DNA of 64,000 bases from Candidatus Kaiserbacteria bacterium. Its GTDB lineage: Bacteria; Patescibacteriota; Minisyncoccia; Phycocordibacterales; Phycocordibacteraceae. The notes under the pieces were generated by a model. The model was given only the letters and a program-made list of their open reading frames with translations. It was not told the origin of the DNA and ran no database searches. The number at the start of each line of letters is the position of its first letter. The stretch's first letter is position 1. Made by a program: the position numbers and the translations under genes. The DNA is taken from positions 26,608-90,607 of the forward strand of contig JACPGH010000002.1 in assembly GCA_016182485.1 (NCBI GenBank), given 5' to 3'. Shown in pieces: positions 11,534 through 28,071 of this stretch.

Positions 11534-11848
11534 TCACTTCTTCGGGAGCTTGCACTCCGTCTCACCCGACGGGGAGACCGTGCAGGTGACAGGGCCCGAG
11601 TTCTTCTGCAAGTAGTACGCGATGATGCCGATCTGCGTCGACGTAGCTTCCTTGCCGGCGCAATCGAGTTTCAGCACCGCGTCGTCTGGAGAACGCGCCT
11701 CGGTTGACTTCATGGTACATGGGATGTCTCGCGCAGCCATGCTTGAGTGCCGTGGGACAGCATAGGCCACCGCTTGAATAGCGGCGGCCACAGCGATGAG
11801 CAGCGCGATGAGAAGTTGTGCTGGGAACGGTAGAATGAGGCGCTTCAT
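11534..11848 (-). CDS. small secreted protein (signal peptide, Cys-containing)
   Basis: Start MKRLILPFPAQLLIALLIAVAAA is preceded by AGGAGG. The longer ORF in the track (to 12313) has an Arg/Pro-rich N-terminal extension that looks spurious. Confidence 0.6.
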   Translation of the reverse strand: MKRLILPFPAQLLIALLIAVAAAIQAVAYAVPRHSSMAARDIPCTMKSTEARSPDDAVLKLDCAGKEATSTQIGIIAYYLQKNSGPVTCTVSPSGETECKLPKK

Positions 11849-12456
11849 GACCGCACCTCCTGCTCGTGGCGCTCGATCATGATCGAAGGGCAGACCTTCT
11901 GCTTCTGTGCGGCGAACCATTCGCCGAGGATTTCGAAGAAGGTCGGCGCTGTCGGGACATGCGCCTCCGCCTTCTCTCGCTCCGCGCGCCAGCGCCGAAG
12001 GCGTCGCTGGTACTGCCATTCGTTCACGCGGTTCCCAGCGGCCTTGATGCCCCAGATGAACAGGACGACTCCGACGATGCCGCCCGCGGTGAGCGAATAG
12101 GCGGAACCGCCGAAGAGGGTCATTGGCAGGACGGTGAAGACCGCTATCAGGAGGCCGTACAGGATCACGTGAAGCGTGAGAATGAGTGGTGCGTAGACGA
12201 GCGTGACCCTCAGGAAGAAGCAGAGATTGGTGTGCTTGATCCATGAGGCAGTGTCTCTGTCCCGGAAGGCATCGTAGATGCCAAGGGACCATAGGAACCA
12301 TCGAACGTACCATTGCCGGTCGTCGAGAGTCATTAGGTATCCTTTCTCCGCCTCAATGCGGCATTCGACAAGGAACTGCTTGAGCCGCTGCTGGCGAGTC
12401 CCAACGACGCGCCAATTCCGGGCCGAAGTATGCTCCACCGGAAGGCTTGTTGTCAA
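11845..12456 (-). CDS. hypothetical membrane protein
   Basis: It has multiple TM helices. Its stop overlaps the start of the downstream small secreted-protein gene (ATGA), so the pair looks like an operon. Confidence 0.55.
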   Translation of the reverse strand: MTTSLPVEHTSARNWRVVGTRQQRLKQFLVECRIEAEKGYLMTLDDRQWYVRWFLWSLGIYDAFRDRDTASWIKHTNLCFFLRVTLVYAPLILTLHVILYGLLIAVFTVLPMTLFGGSAYSLTAGGIVGVVLFIWGIKAAGNRVNEWQYQRRLRRWRAEREKAEAHVPTAPTFFEILGEWFAAQKQKVCPSIMIERHEQEVRS

Positions 12457-12527
12457 GGTTCGCCAGCGGTCGCTCAGGACATAAGCGAGAGATTGCTTCC
12501 TGGGTTCTTGTTTGTTATATTTTTAAT

Positions 12528-12698
12528 ATGTCCCAAGACCGAATCATACGGATGCAGTCCTCCGCCTCGAAACACGTATTGATAACCCGCAAGAACAAAA
12601 AAGCGGTGCAGCGTAAGATCGAACTTACGAAATACGATCCTGTCGCTCGGAAGCGCGTGGTGTACAAAGAAATCAAGTGGAAGGGTAAGGGAGGATAA
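12528..12698 (+). CDS. rpmG: 50S ribosomal protein L33
   Basis: MSQDRIIRMQSSASKHVLITRKNKKAVQRKIELTKYDPVARKRVVYKEIK matches the L33 pattern (TKNKK...KFDPV...H.IYKEIK). Confidence 0.8.
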   Translation: MSQDRIIRMQSSASKHVLITRKNKKAVQRKIELTKYDPVARKRVVYKEIKWKGKGG

Positions 12699-12700
12699 AT

Positions 12701-12728
12701 CGAAAGCCCCGCGTCCGCGGGGCTTTCG
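12701..12728 (+). terminator. hairpin terminator after rpmG
   Basis: CGAAAGCCCCGCG-TCC-CGCGGGGCTTTCG followed by ATTTGG. Confidence 0.5.
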
Positions 12729-17958: not shown

Positions 17959-18531
17959 CTAAAAAGTCTCTAGAGCAAGCCTCGCGCCGACGACAAACGA
18001 AAACTCCTTTTTGGCTTCGGCTTCTTCTTTAAGTTGTGAAAGCAGCGACGAGCGCAGGGGTTCGTTAGTACGAAAACACTTATCTATGGCCTTTTGTATG
18101 CGATTTAGCAGCTCCTGTCGGCGCTCTAAAAGTTCGGTCCGATTGAGCTCAATGTCGATAATTGTTAGTTCACCCCTCTCACTACCACCCCTCTGGAAGA
18201 TATATGCCCCTGAAGCCACTACAGAATCATTCGGATCTTCCGAGTAAGGGTTAATATACGGCATTCTATCCTCGTACTTGGTCCCTTTGGCGTTATTGCA
18301 TCGCTGGCAGACGAAACCGAGATTATTCCACTCGAACTCGAGTTCAGGATATCTACCCTTAGGCTGGATGTGCTCGACATCGCCAAATGATGTATCTCTG
18401 ACGTAGGCTTCGCAGTACATACATTTACCACTGGAGGCATCGATTAAAGCCGCCTTGTTATCTGCGTGCTTATAATCGCCAGCCGTAAGTCGGTCAGGTC
18501 TTGGACAGGTCGGGCGATGCAGTCTGATCAT
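17959..18531 (-). CDS. ptuB: HNH endonuclease, Septu PtuB-like
   Basis: Length 190 aa with CMYCE...DVEHIQPKG...FVCQRCNNAKG (His-Me finger). Its start overlaps the stop of the upstream ATPase gene (ATGA). Confidence 0.65.
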   Translation of the reverse strand: MIRLHRPTCPRPDRLTAGDYKHADNKAALIDASSGKCMYCEAYVRDTSFGDVEHIQPKGRYPELEFEWNNLGFVCQRCNNAKGTKYEDRMPYINPYSEDPNDSVVASGAYIFQRGGSERGELTIIDIELNRTELLERRQELLNRIQKAIDKCFRTNEPLRSSLLSQLKEEAEAKKEFSFVVGARLALETF

Positions 18532-19754
18532 TGCGCTTTATCTTCAGCCAGACGATAAATCGCTTCCGGCATCAATCTTTCGAGGCCTATCTCTTTCAAT
18601 TTGTCGCGCATCCGCAGGAGATCTTCTTTGGTAAGGTCCTTCTTCTCAGTATATTCTTTAGTGATTCGTGCCAGATCCTCTTCTGCCCAGATTGGCATCG
18701 TAAAGCTGACACCGAGCACTTCATCCAAAACCTCTGTTGCGGTTCTTGGTTTATCAACCAAGTCAAGCACTTCAGAGTAAACTTTTCCCTCCTTATACCT
18801 GAGTGCTACCACGGTAGAATCACGCACTGATGTCACAATAAGGGGACTGTGGGTACTTATGACAAATGATGCCTTCGGGAAGGCTTTCAAAAGATCTGAG
18901 AGTATCCTCCTCTGCATAGTCGGGTGTAGATGATTTTCCACCTCGTCAATTACGACAACGAAATTATCACGCTTATCGGTTGAGAACATATGTATTTGCC
19001 AAGCCAAGTCAATCATCGTGCTGATTCCACCTGATGCCGCATCAAGAAGGAACTCTCCACTGTCGCAGCAAAACACTATTTCTTGATCCCGGATCTCAAG
19101 TTTTCTAAAACCAAGACTTTTTGGCAGAACTACCTTAAGTACATTTTCAAAATCACGAAAATGCTGTAATAAATCCTCTCGTCCCGGCATAACTGGGTTC
19201 CCATAACCAAAGATATTCCAAGAAACCAGAATCTCTTTCATATGGTAGCTCGATGGAGCACCGCCGCCACCTGAGTAACGATTGCGTACGCTCTCTGATA
19301 TCCTCAAAAAAGCGTCCTCCTTACTAAAGGTTTGGCGCAGCGGCAGGCTGCCCAGCTGCTGATAATTGAATGTCGACCTGTGCGAGGGGATAAAGAATCC
19401 CTCCACATTTTGCTGCCCCCTTATAGTCAGAGTGTATTGTGCTTGCCCAACCAATGGTGCGTGAAGCACAGCTTTTACATCATCGTCATAGATAATTTCG
19501 CCAACATCGTCGCTTGATTTATCCAAGAGGCCCGAAAACCATTCGAGTGTGGAAGTAAGCAGATTCTTTCTAGGAACAGCAAGGCTCATAGAAGACCAAC
19601 CGAAGTGAGAAGCCAAAATGCTCTTGAGAATTGTGGTTTTCCCACTACCGTTGGCACCGGTAATGATAGTCATCCGCCGATGAAAAGGGATTTCAATATT
19701 CCCAAACTGTTGCCACCCTGTGATTTTCAGTTTCTTAAACATATGTTCAATCAT
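18528..19754 (-). CDS. ptuA: AAA_21/ABC-type ATPase, Septu PtuA-like
   Basis: Walker A is GANGSGKTT, the signature-like motif is ASGGIS, Walker B is VVVIDEVENHLHP, and the H-loop is STHSP. Paired with the HNH gene in a lower-GC region. Confidence 0.65.
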   Translation of the reverse strand: MIEHMFKKLKITGWQQFGNIEIPFHRRMTIITGANGSGKTTILKSILASHFGWSSMSLAVPRKNLLTSTLEWFSGLLDKSSDDVGEIIYDDDVKAVLHAPLVGQAQYTLTIRGQQNVEGFFIPSHRSTFNYQQLGSLPLRQTFSKEDAFLRISESVRNRYSGGGGAPSSYHMKEILVSWNIFGYGNPVMPGREDLLQHFRDFENVLKVVLPKSLGFRKLEIRDQEIVFCCDSGEFLLDAASGGISTMIDLAWQIHMFSTDKRDNFVVVIDEVENHLHPTMQRRILSDLLKAFPKASFVISTHSPLIVTSVRDSTVVALRYKEGKVYSEVLDLVDKPRTATEVLDEVLGVSFTMPIWAEEDLARITKEYTEKKDLTKEDLLRMRDKLKEIGLERLMPEAIYRLAEDKAQ

Positions 19755-19820: not shown

Positions 19821-21401
19821 TTACGACACCCATTCCTCTCTTATTCTCCAATCAGTCCTTGGAAACATACTGAGATTAGAAGCCACCATTGTGCTACGCG
19901 GGTCGTCGAACGAGATCGTGACTGAAAACGATCCGTCAGCGTTACGTTTCGGTCGTGCAGAGGAGGCCTTGCTGTACATTTGATACTTTAATCGTAATTC
20001 GACACCATCGTCTTTCTTTTTGAACTTGTTCATTAGAACATCTATCTCATCAAGTGCAGCTCGAATTGTCTCTGGTTTGTTATCACCTAAGTAGTAGGTA
20101 CCATCATAAAGTGCTGCAGAACCACTTTGATTTTCGATTTTTTCAATCTCCAAGTACTTATTTTTTGACCAAAATGAACGTGAATATTTTTCTCCGTTAA
20201 ATAGTGGCGTATTACTTTTGATAACAAACTCGATTGCTCTATGGCCAGTTGCGTAGATGTAAAACAGACAGCCCTGAACTTCTTTGTCGAGTGTTGCTTG
20301 TTGCGCCTTGTGTTGAAGAGCAGAACTATTTCTCCTGAAGAGTATAGGAAACCAATAACCGATCCGGTTATATCTAGTTCCTCCTTGATCAAACGGTTTT
20401 CCATCAACTTTCCATTCGGTAGCAGCTTCATACGCAGCTAAATCACCGACATTCATTACCACGCCTTCTTCCTCCACCATAATATTTAGTCCCATTGTCC
20501 CCTCGTATTTCTTTCGCTCGAACATCGCATAATTTCCATTCGGGAAATGCATTTTGAATCCAGTAAGACCCTCATCCGGAGTTGACAGGAACTCAAGGAC
20601 TTCGAGGTCACGCATTATTCTGTATTTAGAGCCACTAGCTAGTCCCTTTCGTACTTGCTTATAAGTTATGAAGAACGCTGAATAAAAAGCGAAGCACCGA
20701 GAAAGCATATCTGACAACTTCTCAAGACTGATTGATCTGGCACCAATATCCGCACCTTCAATGATACGGAACTCTTCATCAGAGATCGTGTAGTCGGAAT
20801 GATAAAAGGCATTTCTTACTTCATTGTTGAAGAATCCGTCAATGATCTCCCCGATTCGTTCCTCGCCCGACGCAGCCGCCAATTCTTTTATGTAGCTGAT
20901 CTTTTGTCTTGGATATGGCAAATGTCGTCTTGGGAAAAGGCCTTCGGTTTTCCGTTCGACTGTAACCAAATGATCAAAAGGATACATTTTGTATGGTTGG
21001 TCCATACAACATCGCAGTAAGTTTGTTATGACTTCATATGGAGCTGACATTTCGGTTGAATGGCAGTAGAGAAATAGCGCCATTCTTAGCGCCCTCTTCT
21101 CTTGTCCTTTTCCCATTTTCCGCATCATTTTGCTGAAGTCCATTGCGGTATCTTCTGCTTCTACGAACGCATCCCAATGTCCGTCGGTGATTCCTTCTAC
21201 ACGAAGGATTGTGTAGAGATACGTAAAGCCATTTGTATCGCCAGCACGACTGAACAAATGATTGAAATATTCGAGATATTCATCTGTATATTTAGAGAGT
21301 AGGGTCGTGTCTCGTGCGCGCAACCATTTGCGAATCTTCTTTGTGGGCCAAGTCGCGATGTCTCTCATTTCCATAGCTAAGCCATTATTTTCTGCAAGCA
21401 C
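19821..21401 (-). CDS. hypothetical protein in the defence island (N-terminal helical region with HEPN-like R-x4-H motif VRNAFYH; C-terminal ~300 aa of unknown fold)
   Basis: A long ORF of lower GC, co-oriented with and tightly packed between hsdS and ptuA. I recognise no domain beyond the Rx4H motif. Confidence 0.7.
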   Translation of the reverse strand: MLAENNGLAMEMRDIATWPTKKIRKWLRARDTTLLSKYTDEYLEYFNHLFSRAGDTNGFTYLYTILRVEGITDGHWDAFVEAEDTAMDFSKMMRKMGKGQEKRALRMALFLYCHSTEMSAPYEVITNLLRCCMDQPYKMYPFDHLVTVERKTEGLFPRRHLPYPRQKISYIKELAAASGEERIGEIIDGFFNNEVRNAFYHSDYTISDEEFRIIEGADIGARSISLEKLSDMLSRCFAFYSAFFITYKQVRKGLASGSKYRIMRDLEVLEFLSTPDEGLTGFKMHFPNGNYAMFERKKYEGTMGLNIMVEEEGVVMNVGDLAAYEAATEWKVDGKPFDQGGTRYNRIGYWFPILFRRNSSALQHKAQQATLDKEVQGCLFYIYATGHRAIEFVIKSNTPLFNGEKYSRSFWSKNKYLEIEKIENQSGSAALYDGTYYLGDNKPETIRAALDEIDVLMNKFKKKDDGVELRLKYQMYSKASSARPKRNADGSFSVTISFDDPRSTMVASNLSMFPRTDWRIREEWVS

Positions 21402-22943
21402 TGAATGTTTTCTCGCATTTCTTGGACTTTCTCCACTATCCGTTTCTGCTCAGCGAGAGGAGGGAGCGGCATCGGAATTGGGTAAACACTTATTCCTGAA
21501 ATGACCGGTTGCGCGGAGCCTCGATGGGAGGATCTTAGATTTAAATAATTCAGAACGAGCAAAAAGAACTCCTTATCTAAAAAGTTTTCTGGATAACTAA
21601 CTATAAATGCATTGTCAGTTACCCACGCGTCAGATTCTGTAATATAAGCAGTGCCGCAAAGAGCGCCCACACGCCCTATAACAATCGTTCCCCTTGCTGC
21701 GTTAGAGGATGAGTGACGACCTGCTATGCCATTCCCTCCATAGACGAGATATGGTCCTTCAATGGCCTCGCTAACTTTCAGGGAATCGCCTGAGGATATG
21801 TTCATAACATCTCCAAGGCGAACCCACCTCCACGAAGCTGGGATATTAAATGGCGTGTCTGATGCACTAACAGGAGGAAGAAGTTTTGTTGTTTTGCGTT
21901 TCCGACCGGTGCTTAAGGTCTTTAAGCGCTCTTCTCGAATCTTAAGTAGTAGCTCCTCAGCTGTACCTTCCTTGGCATTTTGCAGGACCAGCTTGCCAGA
22001 CACAGCAAGTGTGAGAACTGCGTTCTCGAGTTCTTTGATATCCGATGGTGATTTTACCAACTCAAATAGATACTGAAGAGGCAGTTTACTGTTGCCATCC
22101 CTGAGATCTCTCATCGCACTTCGTGTAAGACGTGTACGTACTGCGTCTCGTTCTTTCTTTTTCGCCTCTAGCTCGTCAAGGCTGCGCATTACGTCCTTGA
22201 TCTTATCCACCATTCGATCCTGCTCACCAGAAGGCGGTAGAGGTATCTCAATCAGAGGCAATGTGTCGCCATTAAGCGTACGCCCCTTAATGGCATTCGA
22301 CGTTCTTCCGGTTAAATCTAGCGCCGGTAATATATGAAATAAATAGTCTCGTAGAGTTTGGTCAGGACTTATGAACGCTGCAATCGCCTCGTTATGACAC
22401 GCGTCCATCTCTAAAATAGACATCTTACCGATGGTCAGCTTAAAACTAAAAAGCAGGGACCCCAGCGGGGCTTTATAACCACGGAATACTTCCTCCAAAG
22501 CAAGTTCGTTAATGGATTCTTTCGTGGAGTGAATTGTGCTGCCATTTATCAAGTCGGAAATGGAAACCCAAGGAGTGTCTGCGGCTGACCAATACTTGGA
22601 TTCAACGCGCGGCGGTGTTTTCCCCACGCGAAACTCGACGATGTCACCAAGTCGAACCCATTTCCAAGAAACCGGGACCTCAAATGGTACCTCTGTCTGA
22701 TCGACAGGTAATAAAGATTCTTTTCTGCGTCTTCGACCATTCTCGGCAACACCCCGCTGCAATCGTTCACTCTGAATCTTCGCATAGAGCTCTTCTCCCG
22801 TGCCTTCCTTCGGGTCGTGCGGAACTAGCCGTCCAGAGACGGCAAGGGTGAGGACTGCTTTACGAAGACGCTCTATGCCGTCAGGCAACTCTAGAAAGTC
22901 ATCTAGGTTTGCGACGATTGTACGTACATCATTTAGTTCCATT
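21377..22943 (-). CDS. hsdS: type I restriction-modification system specificity subunit
   Basis: Two target-recognition domains are separated by conserved coiled regions (LAVSGRLV...; LAVSGKLV...). The MELNDVRTIV start is preferred. It overlaps hsdM. Confidence 0.85.
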
Positions 22944-24374
22944 GTGCGAGAGGGCGCCCTCCAAAAGCGCTCTGATTTTATCCAGTGCTTTCTTGGTTTC
23001 CTCCTGCTTGGTGCGATAGGTAGCAAGAAGCTCTTCAGGGGATTCGACCAATTCCTTCGGGGCACGAGGATTTTTAATATCAAGGTTGTAGTTCCTTGCC
23101 CGGATCTCGTCGATGGATACTTTCCACGCCTGTCCGTTTTCTTCGCGATTGTTCCACCACACCTTTTCCGGCGCGAACTCATCAACGCTCATAGGATTCG
23201 TCATCGAGTAAGCCTTCTGTCCTTTCGGCAGCGGATGCTCGTAGTACCAGATCTCTTTGGTCGGCTCGCCCTTGGTAAAGAAGAGGAGATTCGTGGCTAT
23301 ACTGGTGTAAGGAGCGAAAACGCTCTTGGGTAAGCGTACGATGGTATGCAAATTACACTCCTCGAGGAGCATCTTCTTGAGTGCGGTTTTCATTCCTTCG
23401 CCAAAGAGAGTGCCGTCGGGTAGAACAACGCCGCAGCGGCCGTACTTCTTGAGCAATCGTACGATAAGCACGAGAAAGAGATCTGCTGTCTCTCGCGTTT
23501 GAAACTCGGTCGGGAAGTTCTTCTCGACGCCCGGCTCCTCTGTGCCGCCGAAGGGAGGATTGGTAACTATGCAGTCGATGCGGTCAGCGTCTGTATAGTC
23601 GCGCAGCGGCTTCTCGAGCATATTGCCGCGGCGCATTGTGACTGGCTCCTCAATGCCGTGGAGCATCATATTCGTGATGAGGAGCATATACGGGAGCGGC
23701 TTCTTCTCCACGCCGTGAATGCTTTGCTGGATTTTCGCTTCGTCTTTGACGGTCTTTACTTGTTTACGGAGGTGCTCAAGCGAGTTTACGAGGAATCCGC
23801 CGGTGCCGGCTGCCGGGTCAAACACCGATTCGCCAACCTTCGGGTCAATCATCTCAACAATGAATTGGGTAACGGCGCGAGGCGTATATAGCTCGCCGTA
23901 GTTCTTTGCGCTCTGAAGGCTCTTAAGAAGACGCTCATAGACCTCGTTGAAAGCGTGCCGATCCTTTGAGGTATTGAAGTCGATCTCGTTCACCTTGTTG
24001 ATGACTTGCTTCAGTAGCGTTCCCTTGCGCATAAAGTTGTTCACGTCTTGGAACGCCATACGCGTAAGCTCTGTACGCTGATTACCATTAGTCGGTAGTG
24101 CACGCAGAGCAGGAATTAGGTCTCCGTTTACGAAAGCAACCAACTGCTCACCGGTCAGCCCATCAAGCGGAGCGGCCCACGTGCGCCACTGATACTCTTT
24201 CGGCAGTGTTGGTGTATATTTTTCCTTCCGTATCTCCAGAGCCCTATCTTCGTCGTCAAGGATCTTCAAATAGATGAGCCAAACGAGTTGCGAGAGGCGT
24301 TGCGCATCTCCGTCTACGCCGATGTCTTGGCGCATTATGTCCTGTATGGCTTTGATGGTAGCGGGGGTGAACAT
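22929..24374 (-). CDS. hsdM: type I restriction-modification system DNA methyltransferase subunit
   Basis: Carries the NPPFGG motif, an AdoMet-binding DPAAGTGGFL motif and an N-terminal HsdM domain. Confidence 0.9.
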   Translation of the reverse strand: MFTPATIKAIQDIMRQDIGVDGDAQRLSQLVWLIYLKILDDEDRALEIRKEKYTPTLPKEYQWRTWAAPLDGLTGEQLVAFVNGDLIPALRALPTNGNQRTELTRMAFQDVNNFMRKGTLLKQVINKVNEIDFNTSKDRHAFNEVYERLLKSLQSAKNYGELYTPRAVTQFIVEMIDPKVGESVFDPAAGTGGFLVNSLEHLRKQVKTVKDEAKIQQSIHGVEKKPLPYMLLITNMMLHGIEEPVTMRRGNMLEKPLRDYTDADRIDCIVTNPPFGGTEEPGVEKNFPTEFQTRETADLFLVLIVRLLKKYGRCGVVLPDGTLFGEGMKTALKKMLLEECNLHTIVRLPKSVFAPYTSIATNLLFFTKGEPTKEIWYYEHPLPKGQKAYSMTNPMSVDEFAPEKVWWNNREENGQAWKVSIDEIRARNYNLDIKNPRAPKELVESPEELLATYRTKQEETKKALDKIRALLEGALSHNGTK

Positions 24375-24377
24375 ACG

Positions 24378-24527
24378 TTAGACGATATAGACATTATCGA
24401 GGAGTTCATCCAGCATCCGGAGATATTCATCCTTACCGCCAAAAAGAGAGACGAGTTCGTAATCCGTACCGAGAGAACGAATCGGCTCGAGAGTAAGAAC
24501 ACGTACGCTTTCAATATCCTTGAGAGG
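24378..24527 (-). pseudogene. hsdR: displaced C-terminal segment of hsdR in the +1 frame
   Basis: The alternate frame encodes PLKDIESVRVLTLEPIRSLGTDYELVSLFGGKDEYLRMLDELLDNVYIV* (a typical HsdR tail, FGG...Y). It stops 4 nt before the hsdM start. Confidence 0.6.
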
Positions 24528-26718
24528 CTACGTGCATAATGAGGTCGAACAGATCGAACTCACCACCTACTTGTTTCTGGAGCTCCTCAAGGGGGATTCC
24601 CGTGGCGTCGAGCTGGTCGATGATAGCTTGCCTGCGTTCGGCGGACTGCCAAGCCGTAAAGAAGCTCTCGAGGGTCGGATAGTGATTGAGAATATTCTTG
24701 CGCGTGAAGTCGGTCAGGGATTCGGTTATGAGCTTGCCGTCGGCACCCAAATACTGCACCTGTTCCTTTACGATGGCATAGGGAACGCCGCTTATCGTAT
24801 ATACCGGCGGCCGCCCGATAGGACCTCCTTCTCCGGGACCTGTGATGATCACATCCACGAGCTCGTCTTCCTTTTCTTTTACTTCGATTGGCTCATCTGT
24901 CGGATCTAGCTCTTTCAACACACAGTCGATGTCGTCGTTCTCTCCCACTTCAAACACGCGCTCAGGCACTCCGTCGAATCCGGGGTCAGCGAAAAGTTTC
25001 GTTACGCCCTGAAAATCCATTACCGTGAACCACATTTTGCCTTTATCCTCGCGCACGCGCGTGCCGCGGCCGATGATCTGCTTGAACTCGGTCATACTCT
25101 CAATCGGCTTGTCCAAGACGACGAGCTTGCAGGTTTGTGCATCCACGCCAGTCGAAAGAAGTTGCGAGGTCGTCGCGATTGTCGGGAAGCGCTCTTCCGG
25201 GTCAATGAAGCGGTCAAGCTGATTCTTGCCCTCCTCGTCGTCTCCGGTGATGCGCATTACGTAGCGCACGTTCTCCCGAGCGCGGTCGCCGCCCGCGTTC
25301 ACGAGCGCAGAGCGCATTCGCTCGGCGTGTTCGGTGGTACGACAGAAGACGATAGTCTTTGCGAACGGATCGTCAATCGCGTCCAAGTACTCGATTATCT
25401 TCTTGGCTACCAGCTCATCGCGCTGCGGGAAAATGACCGACTTGTTCACATCGCGAAGCTCATAAATGCGGTCTTCTACAGCATTCCCTTTATCATCCAG
25501 CGTCCCCGGAGAAGGTCGCCATCCGGTAATGTCGTTATCAAGAAGCACACGGAGCACCTTATAGGGAGCAAGGAATCCATCGTCAATCCCTTGTTTCAAT
25601 GAGTATGTGTAAATGGAATCTCCGAAATAATGAGTGGTACTGGTGTCAGTCGTCTCTTTCGGGGTCGCGGTCAGACCGAGGTGAGCTGCGCTCGTGAAGT
25701 GTTCAAGCACCTCGTGCCACTCACTATCAAGTGAGGCACTGCCGCGATGGCATTCATCTACAATAATGAGGTCGAAGAAGTCGGCGGGAAGTCTCTTATA
25801 AAGCTTATCCGGTTCTGTTGGTCCGCTCATAGCCTGATACAGACCGAGGAATATCTGATGCGACATCAGCTTGCCTAGATCGTCGAAGTCGGAGCGAGAT
25901 ATTTTTGTAAGCGCCTCACCGAAATGCTTCAGATCATTTATACGAGCCTGATCAACAAGGATGTTGCGGTCTGCGAGAAAGAGGACGCGCTTTGCGTTTC
26001 CAGACTTCCACAAGCGCCACATAATCTGAGCTGCGGTGTAGGTCTTACCCGTGCCCGTGGCCATAACGAGTAGAAGGCGTCTGCCGCCACGCGCGAAAGC
26101 TTCAACAGCTCGGTCAACGGCGATGCGCTGGTAGTAGCGAGCAAGTTTTATCCCGTCGCCATAGTATTCAGTCTCGACCGCTGAACGTACGGCCGTATTG
26201 TCGCCCTTCCACGCGAGATACCGCGCGTGAAGCTCTGCTGGTGCTGGGAAAGAATCAAGCTCGATCTTCTGTTCTGTCGAGGCAGATTGCCCTGTGCGAT
26301 CGTGAAAGAGGAACGCTTCGCCGTTCGTTGAAAATACAAAAGGCACCTCAAGTGCCGCAGCATAGCCAAGTGCCTGCTGCATACCCGCGCCGAGCGGTTT
26401 GCCGATGTGTTTCGCTTCCACTACGGCGAGAGGCATATTCGGCCGGTGTTCAAGCAGAAAATCGACCTTCTTCCGGTCCCCGCGCTTTACTGTTTTTCCG
26501 CTAACGTGAATACGCCCCTCTGTATAGGCGTACTCTTCCCGTATCTGAGTGTCAGCCCATCCCGAACGCACGATCGCCGGCCTAATCAGGCGATTCCGTG
26601 TTTCTTCCTCGTTTGCGGGTTCTGTGGGCAAGATAAGGCGTATTTTCCCACATTTTTCGTCTTCATTCAATGCTAATAAAAGCGTACTCCGAAATGTCCT
26701 AAGCAGCGATTCTGACAT
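24511..26718 (-). CDS. hsdR: type I restriction enzyme R subunit (frameshifted near C-terminus)
   Basis: It has the N-terminal nuclease domain (VVEAKHIGKPL), SF2 helicase motifs (ATGTGKT, DECHR) and the C-terminal EFDLFDLI motif. Length is only 735 aa. The C-terminus continues in another frame. Confidence 0.85.
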   Translation of the reverse strand: MSESLLRTFRSTLLLALNEDEKCGKIRLILPTEPANEEETRNRLIRPAIVRSGWADTQIREEYAYTEGRIHVSGKTVKRGDRKKVDFLLEHRPNMPLAVVEAKHIGKPLGAGMQQALGYAAALEVPFVFSTNGEAFLFHDRTGQSASTEQKIELDSFPAPAELHARYLAWKGDNTAVRSAVETEYYGDGIKLARYYQRIAVDRAVEAFARGGRRLLLVMATGTGKTYTAAQIMWRLWKSGNAKRVLFLADRNILVDQARINDLKHFGEALTKISRSDFDDLGKLMSHQIFLGLYQAMSGPTEPDKLYKRLPADFFDLIIVDECHRGSASLDSEWHEVLEHFTSAAHLGLTATPKETTDTSTTHYFGDSIYTYSLKQGIDDGFLAPYKVLRVLLDNDITGWRPSPGTLDDKGNAVEDRIYELRDVNKSVIFPQRDELVAKKIIEYLDAIDDPFAKTIVFCRTTEHAERMRSALVNAGGDRARENVRYVMRITGDDEEGKNQLDRFIDPEERFPTIATTSQLLSTGVDAQTCKLVVLDKPIESMTEFKQIIGRGTRVREDKGKMWFTVMDFQGVTKLFADPGFDGVPERVFEVGENDDIDCVLKELDPTDEPIEVKEKEDELVDVIITGPGEGGPIGRPPVYTISGVPYAIVKEQVQYLGADGKLITESLTDFTRKNILNHYPTLESFFTAWQSAERRQAIIDQLDATGIPLEELQKQVGGEFDLFDLIMHVASQGY

Positions 26719-26743: not shown

Positions 26744-26979
26744 CTATGCAACGCGTATTTCGAGATCTTTGATATGTCGTGCTTGGTCGTCAAGTTCAGG
26801 TCGGACAACCTGGTCTATGCGTTGATGCACTTCATGCACGGCTGTTTCCAACTTATCCATGCGGCCTTCAAGTCTATCAAACCGTTTATCAACCTCGTCG
26901 AACCGCTCGTTCATTGCCGAGAATCCGTCCGCTACCATACGCGCAAGGCTATCAATATCATTTTCTTGCTCCTTGGCCA
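26744..26979 (-). CDS. small coiled-coil protein leading the hsdRMS array
   Basis: MAKEQENDIDSLARMVADGF...DKLETAVHEVHQRIDQ. Length 78 aa. It sits directly upstream of hsdR on the same strand. Confidence 0.5.
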
Positions 26980-26987
26980 TTGCCCAT

Positions 26988-27192
26988 AGCTTACCACGAC
27001 AACCACGACCACCCTCACCGAAGCGCAGAAAATATACGATACCAATACAGACAACCGCATCGACGTGCTCGACTTCAATGCGCTCATCGTGCATTGGGGC
27101 GAGACGGGGGCGAATGCCGTTGCCGACTTCGACAAAAACGGAGTCGTGGACGTGTTCGACTTCAATTCATTAATGGTGCACTGGACCGCGTA
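26988..27192 (+). pseudogene. orphan dockerin-domain fragment (C-terminal piece of a truncated gene)
   Basis: The frame opens after a stop at about 26985 with no plausible start. It encodes a T-rich linker plus two dockerin-type Ca-binding repeats (DTNTDNRIDVLDFNALIVHW; DFDKNGVVDVFDFNSLMVHW). Confidence 0.5.
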
Positions 27193-27226: not shown

Positions 27227-27988
27227 ATGAACACACAACCGAAAAAAATTTCTAACGGGGTGAAAAAGATACTTCTTGCATCCGCATTACTCGCAGCTCT
27301 CGTCCCTGTCGCCGCATTCGCTTCATCTATAACGCTTGCACCCGCGTCGGTTGCGACAACTGAAGGCAAGTCCTTTAGCGTCGCGGTCGCCGTAGATCCA
27401 GCTTCGGGGAAGGCGTACACGGCGCGCGCGAATCTCTCCTTCGACCCGTCGGCAGTAACTCTCGTCGGCTTTTCCTTCGCGCCGAAATGGATGCAGCTGC
27501 CTCAGGAAGGTTATGACCTCGAAGATAATGCCGGAGGCAAGCTCGCGAAGACGGGCGGCTATCCCGGAGGCATTACGACAGCCACAGTCCTTGGCACGGC
27601 TACGTTCCGCGCCAAGACCACTGGCGTTACGACCATCTCGGCAACGGGGGATTCGCTCATCCTAGATGCCAGCAATCAAAACGCGGTTTCCGGAGCGCAA
27701 GGCTCGGTGCGGGTTTCTATAGCGGCCGTGCCGGTCGCGCCGCAGCCCGCAGCGTCTACAGAAACCGCGCCCATTGTCTCGACTGCCGAAGCGGTGCCCG
27801 CCACCACGACGCTCGATCTGGCAGAAGCAGTCACCGAAGCTGGCACCGCAGTAGCGCTCTCGCCGCTCGATTCCTTTCTCACTCTCGGCACGGGCAGCGC
27901 CGCAGTCGCCTCGCTCGTAACGCTTATCGTCCTTCTCGTCGTTGGCGCTGGCATCTGGCTCTGGCGCCGCGAACGGGCTCGGTATTAA
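27227..27988 (+). CDS. cohesin-domain protein with signal peptide and C-terminal TM anchor
   Basis: Has a signal peptide, a cohesin-like beta-sandwich (SITLAPASVATTEGKSFSVAVAVD...YTARANLSFDPSAVTLVGFSF), an Ala/Thr/Pro linker and a TM helix with an RRERARY tail. Confidence 0.65.
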   Translation: MNTQPKKISNGVKKILLASALLAALVPVAAFASSITLAPASVATTEGKSFSVAVAVDPASGKAYTARANLSFDPSAVTLVGFSFAPKWMQLPQEGYDLEDNAGGKLAKTGGYPGGITTATVLGTATFRAKTTGVTTISATGDSLILDASNQNAVSGAQGSVRVSIAAVPVAPQPAASTETAPIVSTAEAVPATTTLDLAEAVTEAGTAVALSPLDSFLTLGTGSAAVASLVTLIVLLVVGAGIWLWRRERARY

Positions 27989-28007: not shown

Positions 28008-28071
28008 TGTGAAGGTCAGACCTTCACAAGCTGTGAATCTGCAATGTCTTCTGTGAAGGTCAGACCTTCAC
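28008..28071. repeat. paired 21-bp palindromes TGTGAAGGTCAGACCTTCAC(A/G) x2 with 23-nt spacer (locus 2)
   Basis: Palindromes at 28008..28028 and 28052..28071. The spacer is AGCTGTGAATCTGCAATGTCTTC. Confidence 0.85.

Follow-up and report, generated by a model that had tools for sequence, protein, structure and literature searches.

A gene between hsdS and Septu in a Kaiserbacteria island

The stretch of DNA analysed here (the window) consists of 64,000 nucleotides (nt) of contig JACPGH010000002.1 (positions 26,608 to 90,607, forward strand; assembly GCA_016182485.1) from a Candidatus Kaiserbacteria bacterium. On its minus strand lies a gene, called gene X here, that sits between the specificity subunit gene of a type I restriction-modification (R-M) operon and a Septu gene pair. 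The six genes are read in one direction in the order hsdR-hsdM-hsdS-X-ptuA-ptuB, and the five neighbours of X have strong Pfam and PADLOC scores (Table 1). We describe gene X, its family, the conservation pattern of the encoded proteins, their resemblance in fold to HEPN proteins and their gene neighbourhoods, all of which are direct observations, and on balance we consider X to be a conflict or defence effector linked to R-M.

The longest open reading frame (ORF) of gene X occupies positions 19821-21401 of the minus strand, begins with GTG and encodes 526 amino acids (aa). The initial annotation described it as a long ORF, co-directional with its neighbours, that overlaps the hsdS stop codon. 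The direction was correct, and the apparent overlap arises only because the longest ORF, with its upstream GTG, had been taken. At a distance of 2 nt from the hsdS TAG (21379-21377), an ATG at 21374 is in frame and gives a protein of 517 aa. This ATG is the start of X in gene calls on three independent assemblies with an identical locus, and an identical 517-aa protein has been deposited at NCBI as a hypothetical protein of Candidatus Kaiserbacteria. X therefore probably abuts hsdS, with ATG 21374 as its most likely start, and an overlap is unlikely. That X is a real gene and belongs to a real family is virtually certain. With respect to the neighbouring genes, the longest hsdS ORF (21377-23185) has a TTG start, encodes 602 aa and overlaps hsdM by ~250 nt, whereas gene callers start hsdS at ATG 22942, which gives 521 aa and an overlap of 14 nt with the end of hsdM. 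The overlap between ptuA and ptuB is 4 nt.

The six genes form a low-GC island in the Candidatus Kaiserbacteria genome. The GC content is 42.6% for X, 45-53% for the rest of the island genes and 57-58% for the flanks, in line with the earlier remark that the composition of X matches that of the island. Neither att-like flanking repeats nor a tRNA gene adjoining the island was found when these were looked for, and scans for promoters and terminators yielded only chance-level signals. At the hsdR-proximal edge of the island there is a 36-nt direct repeat (27062-27097 and 27149-27184; 81% identical, spacing 87 nt), which may represent a regulatory region for the R-M operon. Its first copy overlaps the 5' end of a small ORF at 26744-27094, which is co-directional and encodes 116 aa of coiled-coil-like appearance, and its second copy lies just upstream of this ORF. 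Furthermore, the palindromic 20-mer TGTGAAGGTCAGACCTTCAC is present in two perfect copies, 44 nt apart (28008-28027 and 28052-28071), a short way downstream of the ORF at 27227-27988, and may serve as an operator or as an element of the terminator type.

Table 1. Positions in the window of gene X, the parts of its product and the adjoining genes
Feature	Position	Strand	Basis or detail
hsdR, type I restriction subunit	24511..26718	-	Pfam, PADLOC
hsdM, type I methyltransferase	22929..24374	-	Pfam, PADLOC
hsdS, type I specificity subunit, 521 aa	21377..22942	-	Pfam, PADLOC, gene calls
gene X	19821..21374	-	517 aa plus stop; gene calls on three assemblies, identical NCBI protein
X, N-terminal helical HEPN-like domain, residues 1-250	20625..21374	-	
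X, RNAFYHSDY motif, R187-Y195, putative HEPN catalytic R-N-x3-H	20790..20816	-	conservation, end of helix 184-191
X, middle beta-rich domain, residues 251-310	20445..20624	-	conserved E261, G272, R287, N297
X, C-terminal alpha/beta domain and tail, residues 311-517	19821..20444	-	
ptuA, Septu ATPase	18528..19754	-	PADLOC PtuA, E=7.8e-150; start 66 nt downstream of X
ptuB, Septu HNH nuclease	17959..18531	-	PADLOC PtuB, E=2.1e-61

The X family and its gene neighbourhoods

X has 60 close homologues, and all the named ones are hypothetical proteins, which is also the label that PGAP gives to relatives of X. A profile search of 1.84 billion cluster representatives retrieved 1,129 clusters at E<=1e-3, with 308 at E<=1e-30, and a full-text search of the published literature found no description of the family. 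Depending on their architecture, the members are short (~310-350 aa), with the N-terminal domain and the small beta domain, long (~500 aa) and X-like, or insert forms (~650 aa), in which a segment of ~220 aa lies within the C-terminal domain. The beta domain is common to every architecture, and the C-terminal domain is missing from the ~320-aa short forms. Some short forms carry additional N-terminal parts: P0072 and P0103 are fused to an N-terminal HTH_17, P0073 is extended by 340 residues of unknown type, and P0110 has 255 extra residues that begin with YVAYFDMLGFK and may be cyclase-like, together with a degenerate R-x4-H.

The taxonomic spread was assessed with each species represented by a single genome. 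The long form was confined to Patescibacteria (Kaiser-, Zambryski-, Nomura-, Uhr-, Doudna- and Adlerbacteria, Saccharibacteria and Paceibacterota), apart from L019, a truncated match that covers residues 13-251 and comes from a contig of 4.6 kb binned as Pseudomonadota. The short forms have a patchy distribution, with members in Proteobacteria, Nitrospirae, Planctomycetes, Acidobacteria, Actinobacteria and further groups; cultured Rhizobiales are among the carriers. One of them (L091), annotated as hypothetical, is encoded on plasmid pAt2 of Agrobacterium pusense (11696-12712 of the record), with two NUDIX genes on one side and KAP NTPase and TIR genes on the other. Another (L092), also annotated as hypothetical, is found in Microcystis phage Mwe-Yong1112-1 (15529-16479 of the record), where it is inserted among tail genes of the phage, on the opposite strand, and adjoins a Dam methylase. 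A single X-family locus was found in the 2.9 million viral contigs of IMG/VR.

Clustering of all ORFs within 5 kb of X at 88 loci revealed no conserved partner gene, and a conserved two-gene system was ruled out on this ground. The genes most often seen near X are those for DNA methyltransferases and serine recombinases, and hsdM and hsdS of type I systems. X lies immediately after hsdS in the window and at loci from Uhrbacteria (L017), Doudnabacteria (L018, the same as L004) and Adlerbacteria (L026), with hsdS-to-X gaps of 2-9 nt. At the Uhrbacteria and Doudnabacteria loci the order is hsdM-hsdS-X-hsdR, and the genes are 9-13 nt apart. The type I systems that X follows belong to three divergent lineages, between which the HsdM proteins are 24-33% identical and the X proteins 41-58% identical. 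At further metagenomic loci X lies in the same direction directly downstream of R-M genes that are not of type I, with a gap from R-M gene to X of at most 45 nt except at L111, where it is 195 nt. X follows a type III Res subunit (L111), an Eco57I-type IIG enzyme (L120, and L122, where a SIR2 gene comes next), an EcoRI-type methylase with a GmrSD/HNH gene behind X (L109), a D12/N6_N4 methylase and an unknown ORF (L097), or an N6_N4 methylase and a 214-aa ORF (L110). Other defence genes near X homologues encode AIPR, Shedu SduA_C, SLFN_AlbA_2, Mrr, DpnII, MunI, TIR and DUF4238 proteins. The Doudnabacteria island (L004, 3704-4489 and 5844-7112) also contains a RiboL-PSP-HEPN gene, RadC, AbiEii and a serine recombinase, and is a compact mobile defence island in a candidate-phyla-radiation (CPR) genome.

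The linkage to R-M is marked for the long form, where a methyltransferase-like ORF occurs within 3 kb in 15 of the 25 distinct loci and the density of methyltransferases is 1.18 per 10 kb near X versus 0.15 at 3-10 kb of the same loci. The short forms have a methyltransferase at only 7 of 94 loci, at a density of 0.15 versus 0.09 per 10 kb (long versus short forms, p=7e-8), and often sit among housekeeping genes. Of four insert-form loci, none has a methylase neighbour; two of these are defence islands (STAND/PIN-MazE/SIR2 and TIR/Mrr) and two are housekeeping contexts. Since the short forms show little of it and these four loci none, the linkage is a trait of the long-form clade of Patescibacteria and not of the whole family. 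These contexts speak against a defence role tied to R-M, and so does the background of the hosts: few defence systems other than R-M are known from CPR genomes, and the adjacency of X and R-M could therefore reflect general clustering in defence islands.

X is linked to several R-M types and not specifically to type I, nor to Septu. PtuA and PtuB adjoin X only at the window locus. PtuA-like and PtuB-like ORFs occur at a distance in one Rhizobiales island, and the other ~85 loci have none. The notion of X as a third Septu component was accordingly rejected for lack of co-occurrence elsewhere. Of the two associations considered at the outset, that with R-M holds for the long form of Patescibacteria and that with Septu does not extend beyond the window.

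The tight placement behind R-M genes could also mean that X is an accessory or guard subunit docked on the R-M complex through its C-terminal domain, in the style of PrrC on EcoprrI, and freed once the enzyme is disabled by an anti-restriction protein of a phage. At L017 and L018 X takes the very slot of prrC in its operon (PMC3710099), the gaps behind hsdS are only a few nucleotides, and R-M linkage is found in the long form, which has the C-terminal domain, but not in the short forms. However, the R-M partners are unrelated (types I, II, IIG and III), which argues against one specific interface, the four insert-form proteins possess the C-terminal domain and are not beside methylases, and X has no ABC-ATPase domain of the kind that regulates PrrC. 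We therefore regard docking as rather unlikely. The idea that the C-terminal domain serves as an R-M coupling module is likewise weakened by the four insert-form loci.

The N-terminal domain and its R-N-x3-H motif

The initial annotation described the N-terminal region of X as helical, with the motif VRNAFYH at its end. Confident AlphaFold (AF2) models were obtained, whose pLDDT is 88.3 for full-length X and 86.5 for residues 1-250. According to DSSP, R187 lies inside helix 184-191 and H192 is the first residue past it, followed by a beta-hairpin and a long helix (217-247). VRNAFYH is the sole R-x4-H in X, and 0.64 such motifs are expected from composition. The occurrence of a lone R-x4-H is thus not significant, as the initial annotation had itself cautioned, and the weight lies in the conservation of the motif. 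R187, N188, H192 and S193 are invariant across 38 aligned homologues with identities down to 26%, and RNAFYHSDY is the best-conserved block of the family, which was picked automatically as the pattern for the locus search. In a sample of 100 diverse family members, of which 27 have the insert and 73 do not, R-N-x3-H is retained in 93-95% of those without it.

The HEPN motif, Rx4-6H, has a polar residue (N, D or H) directly after the arginine and is positioned at the end of a helix (PMC3710099). In X the motif reads R187-N188-x3-H192, with the polar N after R, and it is located at the end of helix 184-191. Furthermore, the model of the N-terminal domain is probably a four-helix up-down bundle which resembles solved HEPN domains. 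HEPN domains also have a second conserved acidic residue, in helix-2 and near the motif. In X the acidic residues E72 and E108, of which the latter closes helix 92-108, are conserved to 95-96%; an Ex3[KR] pattern is not present. When the model of residues 1-250 was used in a fold search, the top six of 48,164 PDB clusters were all HEPN proteins, namely the HEPN toxins 8xdj and 7ae2, Roquin, YutE, Csm6 and HI0074, with 5yep, 2hsb, 4nqf and AbiA at lower ranks. The model of full-length X gave the same HEPN picture.

The insert forms provide further information on the motif. Their insert of ~220 aa sits in the C-terminal domain, flanked by its LKY and DDPR motifs (P0063, P0088 and others). The N-terminal R...H is missing in all 27 insert forms and present in 68 of the 73 members without the insert (Fisher p=1e-19), and 25 of the 27 inserts have an R-x4-H of their own, with the pattern R[GSNH]x[IL][AV]H. 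Some inserts show sub-threshold Pfam matches to MauJ (20 members) and RiboL-PSP-HEPN (4 members). W67, E72, D79, R97, E108, K158, S193, D194 and Y195 are lost alongside the motif, whereas R58, D68, Y103, N118, P132, E261, G272, R287 and N297 are kept in all forms. The simplest reading is that the residues lost together make up the catalytic site, which may have become dispensable once a second R-x4-H domain was gained, and that the persistent residues would be a scaffold or sensor common to the whole family. Judged from these patterns, the catalytic site of the insert forms seems to have moved to another place in a single scaffold.

Other observations count against the HEPN assignment. No defined HEPN family could be tied to the N-terminal domain by a sequence profile. 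In the 100 family members, Pfam scans gave no match for this domain, and its hhalign comparison with the RiboL-PSP alignment was not significant (P=0.043), with the motif out of register. Against the inserted domain hhalign gave P=0.004 at a probability of 8%, and the fold scores for HEPN proteins are modest. The inserted domain did not align significantly with RiboL-PSP in hhalign, and Foldseek against the PDB found no match. Even with the cut-off at E<=1, no Pfam, NCBIfam, PADLOC or PHROG model matched X itself, and single-sequence and profile searches of PDB sequences gave nothing significant. The best PDB match, 9wiw ("Endoribonuclease", E=0.068), was discarded, since its alignment misses the R-x4-H and runs into a His-tag. 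PADLOC returned only single matches among the 100 members, and that to mad1, a widespread regulator, came from HTH-fused members and was set aside. No housekeeping family, which the initial annotation had named as potential contrary evidence, was matched in the Pfam, NCBIfam, PADLOC and PHROG scans.

In principle, the resemblance to HEPN could be superficial, with the R, N, H, E and K residues forming a different active site (of a DNase, or of an enzyme that modifies or hydrolyses nucleotides) or a non-catalytic pocket which binds a ligand or RNA and regulates R-M expression. The lack of a profile match to any HEPN family would agree with this, as would the persistence of R58, D68, Y103, N118, E261, R287 and N297 where R-x4-H is lost; because this second set of residues persists without the motif, X has another important site. 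Nevertheless, the exclusively HEPN proteins at the top of the fold search, the canonical form and secondary-structure position of the motif, and its replacement in paralogues by another R-x4-H domain make such an explanation improbable. We consider it likely that the N-terminal domain is HEPN-like and catalytic, the activity being a prediction.

The C-terminal region, in which the initial annotation recognised nothing, has indeed no match in Pfam, NCBIfam, PADLOC or PHROGs, and its fold search gave generic ferredoxin-like folds only. Its invariant residues include Y335, N336, W341, E382, D424 and K463. A PD-(D/E)xK nuclease, as might be thought from the conserved E382, D424 and K463, was rejected, as neither the residue order nor the fold matches are supportive.

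Proposed function and comparison with known systems

We propose that X is a stand-alone effector, which would combine three parts, with a HEPN fold at the N terminus, a small beta domain in the middle and an alpha/beta domain at the C terminus. The likeliest catalytic centre is R187-N188-x3-H192, probably helped by E72, R97, E108, K158, D194 and Y195, and by analogy with other HEPN proteins X would be a metal-independent endoribonuclease. Because there is no partner gene, latency may be imposed by the extra, non-catalytic domains of X itself. Upon phage infection X could cut tRNA, rRNA or mRNA so that translation stops, resulting in abortive infection or growth arrest, and in Patescibacteria it would be co-transcribed with R-M as a second layer of defence, following the logic of PrrC in EcoprrI. 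RNA cleavage, latency and activation by infection are modelled here on HEPN biology (PMC3710099), and we infer the ribonuclease (RNase) activity, the trigger, the autoinhibition and the defence phenotype of X from it. Taken as a whole, it is moderately probable that X represents a new HEPN family and is an abortive-infection RNase, with predicted activity, that is linked to R-M and works by itself. The suggestion of a new HEPN-type defence effector, made in the initial annotation, has gained support from the conservation of the motif, the fold search, the loss of the motif in paralogues and the enrichment of R-M genes.

Serine recombinases and mobile-element genes are frequent near X, X is found in low-GC islands, short forms occur on one plasmid and in one phage, and single-gene insertions between housekeeping genes exist, all of which would suit an addiction or stabilisation toxin of a mobile R-M cassette or island that acts by post-segregational killing without any response to phage, but this is quite improbable, considering that a free toxin needs a regulator and none of the 88 loci has a conserved antitoxin-like neighbour, that tight co-directional placement within R-M operons of four types would be left unexplained, and that 2.9 million viral contigs yielded one locus only.

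That X is a PrrC-like guard which senses the failure of R-M is conceivable but doubtful; if R-M failure were the trigger, X would offer a much simpler model of the PrrC principle. It is likewise rather unlikely that X founds a new class of R-M-coupled guards, in which the novel beta and alpha/beta domains would sense failure or inhibition of R-M of any type and the N-terminal catalytic site would have been passed to the inserted second HEPN domain. Candidate triggers would then be anti-restriction proteins, depletion of S-adenosylmethionine or breakdown products of DNA, and the family would constitute a natural experiment showing that the scaffold, rather than the nuclease, is the conserved core. 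The exchange of R-x4-H within one scaffold provides a ready-made mutational hypothesis, and the single-gene architecture makes X an easy protein to test. CPR bacteria are thought to rely almost wholly on R-M for defence. A widespread, so far unannotated effector of the toxin type wired into R-M operons would add a layer of abortive infection to their tiny genomes. The family is missing from Pfam, NCBIfam, PADLOC and PHROGs, and current surveys of defence systems are therefore blind to it.

HEPN genes within R-M operons are a recognised theme, as exemplified by PrrC, Abi2, DUF4145, ApeA and pEK499_p136 (PMC3710099). A close parallel is PrrC of the type Ic system EcoprrI, along with its relative RloC. 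Here a gene for a HEPN-type RNase is located between hsdS and hsdR, just as the X homologues of L017 and L018 are, whereas in the window X comes right behind hsdS, after the complete hsdRMS operon; a further likeness is the presumed role as second-line abortive infection behind R-M (PMC3710099). The proteins themselves are built differently. In PrrC an N-terminal ABC-ATPase is followed by the HEPN domain at the C terminus, while in X the HEPN-like domain comes first, with two unrelated domains towards the C terminus and no NTPase. No P-loop and no match to the ABC or Rad50-like ATPase of PrrC and RloC was found in X, and no sequence similarity between PrrC and X was detected. Moreover, PrrC belongs to a type I operon, and X also accompanies types II, IIG and III.

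Abi2/AbiD/AbiF (PF07751), DUF4145 (PF13643), ApeA and pEK499_p136 share with X the single-gene HEPN format, a motif of the R-N-x3-H type and the setting in R-M or defence islands (Table 1 of PMC3710099). However, X and the 100 family members had no match to the Pfam and PADLOC models of these families, and for PF07751 X had none even at E<=1. In comparison with them X adds the conserved beta domain and, in the long form, an alpha/beta domain of ~200 aa. The HEPN-MNT toxins (8xdj, 7ae2, 5yep) and Csm6 have a sequence identity with X of only 8-11%, and X, at four times the size of the minimal toxins, comes without an MNT antitoxin, a CARF sensor or a conserved neighbour. RiboL-PSP-HEPN (PF18735) resembles the family through the weak matches and the R-x4-H of the insert in the ~650-aa paralogues, and a genuine RiboL-PSP-HEPN gene shares the L004 island with an X homologue, but no relationship of the X N-terminal domain to PF18735 could be detected and X of the window has no insert.

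By its sequence, X falls outside each known HEPN family that can be tested, having no ATPase, no model matches and an architecture of its own. In conceptual terms X is not surprising among these systems, and its interest lies mainly in the size of an unannotated family, in its place in the defence of CPR bacteria and in the hand-over of the putative active site.

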